A program made the translations under genes and the position numbers. A model generated the notes under the pieces. It was not told the DNA's origin, ran no database searches, and worked only from the letters and a program-made list of their open reading frames with translations. From positions 1-62,978 of the forward strand of contig JBKCHQ010000076.1 of assembly GCA_046302715.1 (NCBI GenBank): a stretch of DNA of 62,978 nt, written 5' to 3'. The stretch is from Bacteroidia bacterium. GTDB lineage: Bacteria > Bacteroidota > Bacteroidia > M30B66. This document shows positions 29,457 to 50,764 of the stretch, piece after piece (the first letter of the stretch is position 1; every line of letters starts with the position of its first letter).

Positions 29457-31310
29457 ATGCATAAGGGGTTGGTCTGGCAATGTTTCAGACTCTTAGTTAC
29501 TTGTTTGCTATCAATAATTCCATTCATGTCTTTTGCCATTAATACCGATGCACACAGTGCGGCAAAACCAGATGAGGCAGTTATTAAGCACCTTTCGCTC
29601 GATCTGAATATTGATTTTTCTAAGCACATTATAACAGCGACGGCAAAATACCGTGCAGAGTTTTTTACCTCTGCCCGCGAGATTATCCTCGATACCCGAG
29701 ATCTCGAGATTATATCGGTGCAATCGCCATCAGGCACAGCTTTAAAATTCTCACTGGGTGCGGATGTGCCTTTTTTAGGAAAGGCTTTACGTATTGAGGT
29801 TGATAGTTCATCAAACGAATTTTTGATTAACTACCGCACCACCCAAGCATCAGCTGCGCTGCAGTGGCTCGAGCCGTCACAAACCGGCGACGGTAAATCG
29901 CCTTTCGTTTTCACACAAGGGCAGGCTATTTTAAGCCGCACCTGGATTCCTGTACAGGACAGTCCGGGCATACGATTCACTTGGGAGGCAACCGTGCATG
30001 TGCCGGCAGAATTCATGGCCGTAATGAGTGGTAAAAATGTGCAGGAGCGCAACGAAACCGGCACATACTCTTGCCGAATGGAATTGCCCGTTCCGGCTTA
30101 TTTAATTGCACTGGCAGCAGGCGATATTCAGTTTAGCCCCATCGGTTCACGTTGCGGGGTTTATGCCGAACCGGGAATGCTGCCAAAGGCCGCAAAGGAA
30201 TTTGCCGATATGGAAAAGATGCTTCTTGCGGCCGAACAGCTTTACGGGCCTTATGCCTGGGGCAGATACGATGTTATTGTGCTGCCAGCATCGTTTCCGT
30301 TTGGTGGCATGGAAAATCCACGCCTCACTTTTGCTACACCTACCATCATTGCAGGCGATGGATCGCTTACTGCTCTAATTGCCCACGAATTGGCTCACAG
30401 CTGGTCGGGCAATCTGGTAACAAATTCAAACTGGGACGACTTCTGGCTCAATGAAGGTTTTACCGTGTACTTCGAACGCCGTATAATGGAAGCACTTTAT
30501 GGCGCATCGTATGCCGATATGCTAGAAGTGCTCGGGTACAAAGATCTGCAGGAAACCCTCGCCGACTTGGGCGCCAACAATGCTGACACTCAGCTAAAGC
30601 TCAAACTCGTTGGCCGTGATCCTGATGATGGCATGACCGACATTGCTTACGAAAAAGGGTGCTTTCTGTTGGTGTACCTCGAAAATCAAGAAGTTCGCGA
30701 AACATTTGATTCATTCCTGAACCGCTATTTCAAGGAATTTGCCTTTAAAGGCATCACCACCGAACGTTTTTTGCAGTATCTTAAATCACGAAATGGCTTG
30801 AAATTGTCGCCTGAAGCATTGGAAGTAGTCGAAAAATGGATATATGCTCCCGGTTTGCCCATCGAATGCAAGCAGCCAGTTTCTGAACGCTTTAATAAGG
30901 TAGAAGCTTTGGTGCCACGCCTGTTGGCCGGCGAAAAAGCGGCGCGCAACGAAACCAAAACATGGGTAACGCACGAATGGCTGCATTTTATACGTTCGCT
31001 GCCCGAAACGCTTGATCAATCCAAGGCCACATCGCTCGATAAGCAATACGGATTTTCGCAATCGGGCAATTCCGAAATTCGTTTTGCATGGCTTCACTAC
31101 CGCTTAAATCGTGGCGATGCTAGCGTAATGACTTCTGCGGATGCATTTTTGGGTGCAGTGGGCCGCCGAAAATTTGTGTTGCCGCTCTACAAAGCCATGA
31201 TGAAGCAGGCATCCATGAAAGATTTAGCTAAAAGCATCTATGCCAAACATCGAAACGGCTATCACGCCGTTACGCGTCAGAGTATCGACGAGCTAATGGA
31301 GAAGCCTTAA
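29457..31310 (+). CDS. M1 aminopeptidase, leukotriene A4 hydrolase-like
   Basis: FGGMENP, AHELAHSWSG, WLNEGFT, GRRKFVLPLY; the true start may be a downstream ATG. Confidence 0.92.
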   Translation: MHKGLVWQCFRLLVTCLLSIIPFMSFAINTDAHSAAKPDEAVIKHLSLDLNIDFSKHIITATAKYRAEFFTSAREIILDTRDLEIISVQSPSGTALKFSLGADVPFLGKALRIEVDSSSNEFLINYRTTQASAALQWLEPSQTGDGKSPFVFTQGQAILSRTWIPVQDSPGIRFTWEATVHVPAEFMAVMSGKNVQERNETGTYSCRMELPVPAYLIALAAGDIQFSPIGSRCGVYAEPGMLPKAAKEFADMEKMLLAAEQLYGPYAWGRYDVIVLPASFPFGGMENPRLTFATPTIIAGDGSLTALIAHELAHSWSGNLVTNSNWDDFWLNEGFTVYFERRIMEALYGASYADMLEVLGYKDLQETLADLGANNADTQLKLKLVGRDPDDGMTDIAYEKGCFLLVYLENQEVRETFDSFLNRYFKEFAFKGITTERFLQYLKSRNGLKLSPEALEVVEKWIYAPGLPIECKQPVSERFNKVEALVPRLLAGEKAARNETKTWVTHEWLHFIRSLPETLDQSKATSLDKQYGFSQSGNSEIRFAWLHYRLNRGDASVMTSADAFLGAVGRRKFVLPLYKAMMKQASMKDLAKSIYAKHRNGYHAVTRQSIDELMEKP

Positions 31311-31371
31311 GGTTTTATAAGAACATTATTTTAGTGCGGGGCTTTGCAAACTCATACACTTTGAATTCAAT

Positions 31372-31467
31372 TATCCGTTTTAAACGCTTATAAACGTTTG
31401 TTAATGGTTATTTACTTCGGAGGAGCTAGCTTCGCGTTGGGCAGGGGGGGATAGGATTCCTACAAAA
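31372..31467 (+). repeat. Dispersed ~95-nt non-coding element, copy A
   Basis: About 80% identical by hand alignment to the reverse complement of 50376-50470. Confidence 0.85.
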
Positions 31468-31583
31468 ATCAAGGGTAAATCCAAAATTGAATTTTCAACA
31501 AGTCATGTGAATGACGCTATAATCATCCTTTTATCAATTTTACACGATGGAATCTCATAAAAGCTGCGGAAGGAAGTCCCAGG

Positions 31584-32471
31584 CTAAGAATTCACCATTA
31601 CCGAAGTCATAGTTAAAGCGCCGGCAACTGCTTTATCGTTAAATAAGCTTATTTGTTCTGATTTGGATTGCATGGCCAAGACATAAAGCAAGGGCAAATA
31701 ATGTTCAGCTGTTGGGATGGCCAAATCGAAGGCACTGCCTTGTTTGGGAAAATCGATGAGTGGAACATGGTTTTGTTCTACAATCCAGCGCTTCATTTTT
31801 TCGGAGGCTTCCAATGCCCAGTCGAAGGCAAAGCCTACATCGTTTAGGCGGTCCCAGGCTACACGGCCTAAATTATGCACCATGTTGCCACTACCCACAA
31901 TGAGGACACCTTTTCGTCGTAAATAGGCCAACTCGCGGGCAAGGTCATAATGCTGTTGGGGCGTCATGCGTACATCAAGGCTAAGCTGCACCACCGGCAC
32001 ATCGGCTTTGGGGTATAAATGTTTTATAACACTCCATGCGCCATGGTCGAGGCCCCAGGTATGATCAAGGGAAATGTGCTGCGTAAGTTGGGCTTTACTA
32101 AGGTCTTCAGCCAATTCGGGACTTCCCTGGGCAGGATACTGCACATCAAACAAAGCTTGGGGAAAGCCGCCAAAGTCGTGTATGGTCTTTGGTTGCGGCA
32201 TGGCGGTTACGAAGGTACCGTTGGTTTCCCAATGGGCCGAAATGCATAAAATAGCTCGGGGCCGCTCTATCTGCTGGGCCACATTTCGAAAGCCGGCCAC
32301 AAATTCGTTTTCTTCAATGGCATTCATTGGGCTGCCATGCCCGAGGAACAGCACCGGCATTGGAGCTGTCGAAGTGCCTTCGTCCAGAAAATTTGTAAAT
32401 GTGCGTAAGTTCATAGCCATGGCAGCAAAAGGCAACATGCCAAGGGAAAAAAGAAACTCCTTACGCTGCAT
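31584..32471 (-). CDS. ygiD: 4,5-DOPA extradiol dioxygenase (YgiD/LigB-like)
   Basis: FLGHGSPMN, ISAHW, TIHDFGGFP, GLDHG, GSGNMVHNL, PTAEHYLP. Confidence 0.92.
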   Translation of the reverse strand: MQRKEFLFSLGMLPFAAMAMNLRTFTNFLDEGTSTAPMPVLFLGHGSPMNAIEENEFVAGFRNVAQQIERPRAILCISAHWETNGTFVTAMPQPKTIHDFGGFPQALFDVQYPAQGSPELAEDLSKAQLTQHISLDHTWGLDHGAWSVIKHLYPKADVPVVQLSLDVRMTPQQHYDLARELAYLRRKGVLIVGSGNMVHNLGRVAWDRLNDVGFAFDWALEASEKMKRWIVEQNHVPLIDFPKQGSAFDLAIPTAEHYLPLLYVLAMQSKSEQISLFNDKAVAGALTMTSVMVNS

Positions 32472-32694
32472 ATTCAAAAGTATATTTTTTAAACATAAAG
32501 CCAAAGCCCATAACAGCCATGCCATGAATACTAAGTTAGGCCAAGCATAATTTTGACCTTAAAAAGACGTCGAAAAAATGTGTTTTTAAATGCAAATGTG
32601 TATACTTGTAGATGATAATGAAGACCAGAAATCATTTAAAAAACGGGGCGTAACCGAAAAGCCAAAAGAGTAGGAACCACCAATTATAATTAAA

Positions 32695-32991
32695 ATGACA
32701 TCAAAACAAGTTTTGCCCAATTCAACTGCAGTCCTAGTATTAGGAATATTATCAATTGTATTTGGTTGCTTTTTTGTTGGTCTAATTTTGGGCATTATAG
32801 GTCTCAGTCTAGGAGGAAAATCCAGAAAATTATATCATGCTAATCCTGATTTATACACGGGCTATGGAGCTCTCAATGCAGGTTGGATTATGTCAATTAT
32901 TGGAACCGTTTTGGCAGGTTTATATGTTTTGTATTTTCTTTTCGTGGTAGCCATTTTAGGAGGTACGGCCGTAGGACTAATGAACTTATGA
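32695..32991 (+). CDS. DUF4190/CCC-motif-like small membrane protein
   Basis: LPNSTAVLVLGILSI..C...GLILGIIGL; two TM helices. Confidence 0.75.
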   Translation: MTSKQVLPNSTAVLVLGILSIVFGCFFVGLILGIIGLSLGGKSRKLYHANPDLYTGYGALNAGWIMSIIGTVLAGLYVLYFLFVVAILGGTAVGLMNL

Positions 32992-50270: not shown

Positions 50271-50375
50271 TTATTAAGCCCATTCAAGTGGGCTAGAAAT
50301 TAGTGTCCTTTTTTTAACCAGCACATATTTATCAACAAGTCCTTTGAAAAGTTATGTTGGGATGTAGCTATCCAA

Positions 50376-50470
50376 TTTTGTAGGAAGCCTATCCCCCCTA
50401 ACCAAGGCGAAGCTAGCTCCTAAATTTCAAATTGCCGTTAACAAACGTTTATAAACGTTTAAAACGAATA
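50376..50470 (-). repeat. Dispersed ~95-nt non-coding element, copy B
   Basis: Inverted copy of 31372-31467; contains the perfect palindrome AAACGTTTATAAACGTTT at 50443-50460. Confidence 0.85.
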
Positions 50471-50764
50471 GACGAAATTTTCAGGTTAACTGGTTGATAT
50501 ACGAGCAGACGACATACAACAGAAATATGCCTTTATGACGTAAGCTATAGGATAATATTTTAGCAAAACTCCTGCTTGGCAAGTAAACAAACAAGTGAAC
50601 CAAGCTCACTTCTTCGTCCAAAACACCATTTGCAAAAAATAGAATTCGATATCATAGAATCGAATAATTGCGTTTCAACGAAATCGCTATTAGCAACATG
50701 TGTAATAAGGTGCATGAGCCGTAGCAACATTTCTTTGTTTTATACTTTACCCTACCTTTACTGC

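Follow-up and report, generated by a model that had tools for sequence, protein, structure and literature searches.

Two stretches of intergenic DNA in the window (the whole 62,978-nt stretch of Bacteroidia DNA analysed here) resemble one another closely, one on each strand, and raise the question of what kind of element they represent. The original prediction, made from the sequence alone, described a conserved element of ~95 nt, present twice, and offered an sRNA or a non-autonomous mobile unit as its identity. The two copies, A and B, are homologous at the places indicated (BLAST E 2.1e-21; ~84% identity across 96 nt), and the parts then listed can be read directly in the sequence: a palindrome, AAACG[C/T]TTATAAACGTTT, followed by TGTTAAYGG; a 13-nt segment that is variable in sequence and fixed in length; a conserved AGCTTCGC..GGGGGGATAGG.TTCCTACAAAA block; and a distal TTTTCAA box. 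As had also been claimed, copy A lies between convergent genes, encoding an M1 peptidase (+ strand, ending at 31310) and a LigB-type dioxygenase (− strand, ending at 31584), and no ORF was found downstream of either copy. Copy B is flanked by a PagL-like gene and an OmpL-type porin gene.

The place given for the element was correct; its length was underestimated. Conservation continues beyond it to a second box, TGTKNAT, 51 nt past CCTA, giving a unit of ~143 bp (Table 1). Similarly, ‘present twice’ holds for the window, in which our sequence-only covariance model R1 detected no third copy, and fails for the genome, which carries 29 cores and ~27 full-length units.

Table 1. Features of the two copies of the unit in the window
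Feature	Position	Strand	Evidence or remark
Copy A, whole unit	31372..31514	+	R1 match 31369-31512, 100 bits; conservation profile
Copy A, P array TAtCCGTTTTAAACGCTTATAAACGTTTGTTAATGGTTA	31372..31410	.	four CG/TG-centred units spaced 9, 10 and 10 bp
Copy A, forward Bacteroidota −7 box TAGCTTCGC	31427..31435	+	TAnnTTCGC enrichment; best −7-like column
Copy A, invariant G-rich core GGGCAGGGGGGGATAGGATTCCTACAAAAA	31439..31468	+	predicted 5′ end of the putative forward transcript
Copy A, reverse-facing −7-like box, CAATTTTG on the − strand	31482..31489	-	−7-likeness scan
Copy A, D: inverted 9-mers TTTTCAACA and TGTGAATGA (= TCATTCACA on the other strand), 5 nt apart	31492..31514	.	
Copy B, whole unit, reverse complement	50329..50470	-	R1 match 50329-50472, 93 bits
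Copy B, P array	50432..50470	.	
Copy B, forward −7 box, TAGCTTCGC on the − strand	50407..50415	-	
Copy B, G-rich core GGTTAGGGGGGATAGGCTTCCTACAAAA	50376..50403	-	one A>C change in the otherwise invariant 18-mer
Copy B, D	50329..50359	.	reverse-facing box TTATGTTG on the + strand, 50352-50359; 9-mers TTTTCAAAG / TGTTGATAA

Anatomy and distribution of the unit

Conservation profiles and alignments define an intergenic module of ~143–145 bp that comprises, in order, an array of CG-centred repeats (P), a first spacer, a −7 promoter box, a G-rich core, a second spacer and a distal block (D). P consists of four or five CG-centred units at 9–10-bp spacing, which in the lineage of the window's own genome read TAnCCGTTTTAAACGTTTATAAACGTTTATTAACGGnTA. 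Across lineages the 10-bp phase is constant, while the symmetry and the sequence of the units drift (AATCGATTAT, AACCGTTTAT and others). Conservation of phase without conservation of symmetry argues for an array that a protein would bind on one face of the DNA, and against an RNA hairpin. The earlier idea that the palindrome is a protein-binding site is thus probably right, with the palindrome best read as part of an array whose CG units are phased by 10 bp in every lineage.

The first spacer (13–25 nt) is unconserved, as is the second (~15 nt). The core begins 3–6 nt after the −7 box with a G-rich block followed by TTCC(C)TA(C)AAAA, ends in TTCCTAC in the own lineage, and is nearly invariant among the 29 own copies and 45 copies from five other species; one variant, with the core ...GCCCTTAGGGTAGGGGGG... 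(subtype T2), is the commonest in three sister genomes. D, which is found in the own bacterial family only, consists of CAAnnnnA and two inverted 9-mers, TTWTNAACA and TGTKNAT. Position 5 of these 9-mers is free, and a tally on the alignments found the halves complementary in just seven of 17 cases. With this low complementarity, and with no downstream terminators, a role for D as a hairpin or terminator was rejected.

The own genome (3.06 Mb in 291 contigs, 42.9% G+C) is that of a freshwater Bacteroidota. Its cores were counted as matches to GGGGGGATAGGATTCCTA with at most three differences; four of its units form tandem pairs, 206–255 bp apart, and a read depth over the core of ~25 times that of the flanks agrees with the copy number. 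The exact core 18-mer occurs in five other genomes among 185,579 species-level genomes, all of them metagenome-assembled from freshwater, with 4–17 copies in each. A family-wide search model built from 53 copies recovered full-length, divergent units in 21 of the 25 genomes of the family. Counting copies in the genome and its relatives, a check that the original prediction had proposed, thus gave 27–29 units in the former and 9–41 per genome in the latter, where they often form arrays of two or three; a congener, for example, has three 235-bp units upstream of glgA. When 201 genomes sampled from the class were searched with a broader model, the upstream half of the unit was found in four further families, and in two genomes outside the own family it is multicopy (14 and 8 copies). 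The related modules of other families comprise P, the forward box and a hairpin only. Sequence subfamilies differ by lineage.

P arrays also occur without a core at nine places elsewhere in the own genome, among them C270:2466-2483 (upstream of recF), C287:822-839 (upstream of pgi), C81:5189-5206 and C106:64174-64191. One of the nine is at a contig end and one is accompanied by a truncated core, indicating that some are remnants of full units, and the array before pgi is directly followed by GGGTAGTATTCCTAAC and resembles a unit with an internal deletion. Core-less arrays could therefore be decay products, or they could be operators of the same predicted protein in ordinary promoters.

Other repeats were encountered in the course of these searches. 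A second, unrelated repeat of ~150 nt (86–88% identity, in both orientations) adjoins several copies of the unit (C215, C259, C280 and C14); at C215 it lies ~58–210 nt upstream. C215 and C259 are themselves ~92–94% identical copies of one locus, element included, and probably represent strain heterogeneity collapsed into one bin. In a genome from another family of the class (G094; loci L138, L141, L143 and L144), the module is followed by the repeats TCGAAGGG...CCCTGAG and GGGTAGCCCCCGTTTGC, which suggest a second hairpin-repeat family in that genome.

Promoter boxes, predicted RNA and transcription

The original prediction noted that the element is not a simple promoter of a neighbouring gene. 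This remains true of the neighbours, as shown below; what it missed is that the conserved block opens with a Bacteroidota −7 box. We calibrated this box on the own genome, in which enrichment at −40 to −12 of start codons is 8.5-fold for TAnnTTTG, 10.9-fold for TAnnTTTGC and 8.4-fold for TAnnTTCGC, while the reverse complement of the box shows no enrichment upstream of start codons. The element's TAGCTTCGC is the TAnnTTCGC variant. At this position, the units of other lineages and families have TAATTTTGC, TAACTTTGC, TAGGTTTGC, TAAATTTG or TACTTTTG, so that TA and TT.G(C) are constant and the two middle bases are free, which is the pattern expected of a −7 box. In the upstream regions of 1996 long ORFs of this genome, the −7 box lies mostly 15–35 nt before the start codon, implying very short 5′ leaders; these regions revealed no clear −33 element, and enrichment of TAnnTTCGC was as high as that of the consensus.

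Likeness to the −7 box was also scanned blindly along two independent alignments, one of own-lineage and one of divergent copies. The forward box ranked first in the own-lineage alignment; in the divergent alignment it came second overall and was the best of the forward-strand columns. It matches at least five of six positions in 52 of 53 own-lineage and 10 of 32 divergent copies. A reverse-facing box at the start of D ranked third and first in the two alignments, respectively, with at least five of six positions matched in 22 of 53 and 11 of 30 copies. A canonical TAnnTTTG was found at no other fixed position of the unit. The commonest variant in two genomes from the other subclade of the same genus (G001 and G005) has a poor forward box, TTCCTTGC. 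Starts are predicted at the first G of the G-rich block for the forward box and at about +15 after CCTA for the reverse box; these two positions would lie 39 nt apart, and the predicted overlap is exactly the invariant core. A scan for promoters of the sigma-70 type gave one match in the region, TCAACA-17-TATAAT at 31495-31523 (+), which overlaps D of copy A and is probably irrelevant in Bacteroidota. A reading of the units as C-rich, RsaE/LhrC-like sRNAs with sigma-70 hexamers, as in Firmicutes, was likewise dropped, because the genome belongs to Bacteroidota and its own −7 box could be calibrated.

We then considered the structure that a transcript might have. The original prediction had proposed a long hairpin with an AGGAG/TTCCT closing stem. 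This stem is present in copies A and B and is not kept across the family of units; the proposed hairpin is not the conserved one, and for the unit as a whole no consensus fold was found on either strand, RNAalifold finding almost nothing. A different hairpin is suggested by the other families, in which the ~30 nt past the box contain stems (GGGAAUC/GAUUCCC, GGGAAC/GUUCCC, GGGGGC/GCCCCC, GGGCG/CGCCC, GGGAG/CUCCC) whose sequence changes and whose complementarity stays. Some of these stems are followed by a U tract, which in one other family follows the hairpin. In the own family the G-run can pair with UUCC(UAC), and the G.U pairs in GGGAA/UUCCU and GGGGA/UUCCC are compatible with the forward strand alone. 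The own-lineage hairpin is weak (−4 to −8 kcal/mol, with mostly unimpressive shuffle z-scores), its 3′ arm shows no variation within the family, and no intrinsic terminator was found after own-lineage units.

Taking these observations together, we propose that the unit is a promoter cassette that stands alone, is gated by a regulator and drives a short RNA with a G-rich 5′ hairpin, and that it has been multiplied by copy-and-paste and maintained by selection. We assign this reading a probability of about 40%. A DNA-binding protein would occupy the 10-bp-phased CG repeats of P, the last of which is placed where a −33 element would lie, and would gate the promoter whose −7 box is TAGCTTCGC. Transcription would start 4–6 nt downstream of the box, at the first G of the invariant segment, and would yield a non-coding RNA with the 5′ end GGG.AGGGG(GG)AUAGGAUUCCUAC, its G-run paired with UUCC(UAC), and an A-rich tail. 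In the own family, D would add a reverse-facing −7-like box and the inverted 9-mers, which may control or oppose the forward transcript. The sRNA candidacy put forward by the original prediction is, in our judgement, plausible.

Public metatranscriptomes provided five candidate runs and one usable contig. No transcript from the predicted forward start was seen in these runs, no RNA was found on copy A, copy B or the C239 pair, and no RNA run matched the tandem array upstream of glgA in G001. The usable contig comes from a paired lake cDNA run (X26) that had been selected for containing the element's words. It is 156 nt long and consists of 147 nt of paralogue C132 with 4–5 adapter letters at each end, and it is the only RNA over 3 kb around this paralogue. 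It extends from +16, through the core and P, to 39 nt past P. Since it covers P and 39 nt beyond, it cannot derive from the forward promoter.

This contig suits RNA from the reverse strand better, and it bears on an unlikely but serious alternative, namely that the functional RNA lies on the opposite strand. Its promoter would be inside D, with the reverse complement of CAAnnnnA as the −7-like box and the inverted 9-mers as an operator at about −14 to −37; a C-rich RNA of ~150 nt (UAGGAAUCCUAUCCCCCCCUGCCC...) would run through the core and P, and the forward promoter might be active as well. If both were active, the 5′ ends would overlap by ~39 nt, the invariant core, and could form an antisense or transcriptional-interference switch. 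The rank of the reverse box in the blind scan, first in the divergent and third in the own-lineage alignment, is consistent with this, and one end of the contig is situated 5 nt downstream of this box, TCGATTTG (L124 1365-1372; RNA 1377-1523), a start at +10 to +15 having been predicted before the contig was seen. Both genes flanking C132 point the other way, so that reverse-strand RNA at this locus would need a promoter of its own. Nevertheless, the case depends on a single contig that is unstranded, has a depth of 5.7 and may represent PCR copies of a single fragment, in a run chosen for the element's words. Most copies have a weak reverse box (A is the second base in 13 of 29, and other lineages have TTnnCTTG), the related modules of other families lack D, the G.U pairs of the hairpin favour the forward strand, and the 147-nt RNA is unstructured on both strands (z +0.4 and +0.7).

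Combining forward and reverse promoters into a circuit that is global in Bacteroidia is a speculative step that we regard as distinctly improbable. One conserved protein would read P and switch tens of loci; in the own family each locus would be a pair of face-to-face promoters whose RNAs overlap over the invariant 39 nt, forming a sense–antisense toggle of a G-rich and a C-rich RNA, with ~30 such toggles per genome.

Searches for known RNAs agree with the statement in the original prediction that no named RNA family was recognized. The families of Rfam 15, FopS, Flavo-1 and the Bacteroid* motifs included, gave no match on the element in the window at the gathering threshold; around copy A there were chance matches only (E 1-10), and 18 loci from seven lineages gave nothing at E <= 0.1. 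No tRNA or tmRNA lies at the element. The window does contain a full-length DUF805 RNA motif (RF03081) at 32613-32680 (+), with 78 bits against a gathering score of 51, just upstream of an ORF for a 98-aa membrane protein (32695-32991) that matches PF07666/DUF4190 and not DUF805; in lake metatranscriptomes, RNA contigs of many organisms accumulate on this motif. A small protein gene was rejected as the content of the unit, as there is no conserved start codon and the peptides range in length from 1 to >30 aa. The GDRIPTK and DSYK frames and the MFIS-type peptides were rejected in the same way (no start codon, variable lengths), and in the T2 subtype the frame of the core is closed by a TAG just upstream.

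Selection, dispersal and neighbouring genes

The original prediction inferred block-wise selection from conserved blocks at fixed spacing, and orthologous loci in a sister species support this. At the deoC-proximal locus shared by the own genome (C195) and the sister species (L039), the sequences of P, the core and D have been retained; those of both spacers and of the intergenic DNA around the unit have diverged. As the modules are kept at a fixed locus while the spacers are scrambled, they are under purifying selection. A different pattern is seen at own copies C182 and C132 and sister-species locus L055, which have common spacers between unrelated flanks; the similarity starts at P and stops at D, with no target duplication. 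Identical spacers between unrelated flanks indicate that the unit was copied and pasted as a whole, and this, together with the tandem arrays, fits the non-autonomous mobile unit that had originally been suggested.

These findings could also be accommodated if the unit were a DNA repeat akin to MITEs or REPs and had no RNA role. A transposase or recombinase acting in trans would then bind P and D, cleavage or synapsis would take place at the core, and the resemblance to a promoter box would be fortuitous or left over from a parental IS end (cf. IS10 pIN/pOUT). We consider this, too, to be unlikely while deserving to be taken seriously. Whole units have been copied into unrelated loci and tandem arrays, sequence subfamilies are lineage-specific, and truncated units and core-less P arrays resemble decay products. 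Presence also differs between species: the own genome lacks a unit at C100, C280:10.7k and C31, where the orthologous intergenic regions of relatives have one, with flanks too diverged for clean empty sites. Against this, the ends of the unit (TAnCCGTTTT... and ...TGTTNAT) are not inverted copies of one another and there are no terminal inverted repeats, no target-site duplication was found in copies with readable boundaries, and no transposase-like neighbour recurs. A partner transposase of the RAYT/IS200 (Y1) type was rejected. A search with PF01797 finds none in the own genome, which is 100% complete, nor in the element-bearing genomes G002, G007, G008 and G009, and the distribution of Y1 does not follow that of the element: PF01797 is present in G012 and G014, both without a match to the own-lineage model at E<=0.001, and in G013, in which the broader model had two partial matches, both weak. 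Copies A and B were always present in four strain populations for each copy, without empty-site joints. That the modules are still under selection at orthologous loci, long after the units were inserted, likewise argues against a DNA repeat and for the promoter cassette that we favour. No viral contig with the core was found, and a phage origin was therefore rejected.

If each unit carries a promoter, it might drive or regulate the adjacent gene as a portable promoter or leader (a ‘mobile promoter’). The tandem arrays of relatives do aim at the next gene; in G001 and G005, glgA is preceded by three units and its start codon by no further −7 box, and a unit upstream of tyrS has been retained in several species. 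The general pattern is against this, and we judge it very unlikely. Orientation relative to the neighbours is random in 79 copies (upstream genes, 34 − and 25 +; downstream genes, 41 − and 26 +), 13 of 48 copies (27%), including copy A, lie between convergent genes, and in the own genome five of nine co-directional downstream genes have a canonical box of their own, 12–35 nt before the start codon. The flanking genes are unrelated housekeeping genes, and association with a gene family was accordingly rejected. The MerR-like neighbour of copy C238 was considered as the protein that binds D; it is uninformative, because it is present in 24 of the 25 family genomes, including those without detectable units.

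The most improbable of the readings considered is that of a purely DNA-level nucleoprotein site, ~30 loci of which would titrate or remodel DnaA or another global protein beside an AT-rich phased array and a G-rich block; it arises because the D 9-mers resemble DnaA boxes (TTWTNCACA), and it can point to perfect relaxed boxes (an inverted pair in own copy C51, TTATTCACA-N5-TGTGAAAAA, and TTATTCACA in L031), to the free position 5, as in TTATNCACA, and to D halves that are conserved individually and not as a hairpin, but position 6 is A instead of C in most copies, inverted pairs of so short and common a motif arise by chance (37 strict matches, four of them in elements), no box cluster marks an oriC in the own assembly, and D is missing in other families. 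Orientation is unlinked to GC skew (15 against 14), and with this replication polarity was rejected as well.

Significance and comparison with known systems

In our view, the module is most likely the mark of a hitherto undescribed family of small transcription units that are controlled by a regulator and spread by copy-and-paste. Outside gut Bacteroides, little of the post-transcriptional and global regulation of Bacteroidota has been charted, and the module offers a handle on it: a fixed anatomy with a putative operator array, a calibrated box and an invariant segment of 30–40 nt, 10–40 repeats per genome, purifying selection, and a distribution over at least five families of the class. A transcribed module would define a large family of sibling RNAs and a regulon whose regulator could be obtained by means of the P array. 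If the module is not transcribed, it would represent a persistent class of Bacteroidota repeats that, unlike the persistent REPIN repeats, has no RAYT partner. In both cases, assemblies of these abundant lake bacteria are interrupted by the repeat at predictable positions.

The face-to-face promoters pIN and pOUT of IS10 have a 5′ overlap of ~36 nt. If both boxes of the unit fire, their convergent starts, ~39 nt apart, with the overlap as the most conserved part, would be similar in layout; the unit differs in having neither a transposase gene nor IS ends, and both of its promoters are putative. Correia elements are promoter-carrying MITEs. Putative mobile promoters, and the reuse of promoters, have also been described (PMC3575422). 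The unit shares with both the presence of promoter-containing sequence at many non-homologous loci. Unlike mobile promoters, the units are not consistently upstream of genes, and the neighbours keep promoters of their own.

REP and REPIN sequences are GTAG-tagged palindromic repeats associated with a RAYT transposase (PMC3733652, PMC3116915). The units resemble them in being short, lineage-specific, vertically inherited intergenic repeats, with a core that starts with GTAG and ends with CTAC. They differ in that the unit is modular and ~145 bp long rather than a palindrome of 20–40 nt, is present in tens rather than hundreds of copies, forms direct tandem rather than inverted pairs, and resides in a genome without RAYT.

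Sets of sibling sRNAs, such as Qrr1-5, LhrC1-5, the streptococcal csRNAs and the NsiR1 tandem array of Nostoc, have 4–12 copies, proven transcripts and terminators, and known regulators. Like them, the units are small and near-identical, share a common putative design for regulator binding, are in part arranged in tandem and have an invariant core, ahead of which a promoter of their own, the calibrated −7 variant, is placed as in sibling sRNAs. In contrast to these sets, the units are present in several-fold more copies and have clearly spread by copy-and-paste.

The closest described system in Bacteroidota is FopS, a paralogous family of 14 sRNAs in Bacteroides thetaiotaomicron, whose members are 65–70 nt long, with a single-stranded 5′ seed and a Rho-independent terminator (PMC11697453). 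The units are unrelated to FopS in sequence or in Rfam, have a predicted G-rich 5′ hairpin and, in the own lineage, no terminator, carry a putative phased operator array upstream, number 27–41 copies per genome and are known from DNA sequence. What they share with FopS is the general plan: multiple copies dispersed between genes, each with a promoter of Bacteroidota type, a conserved 5′ part and a variable downstream part.
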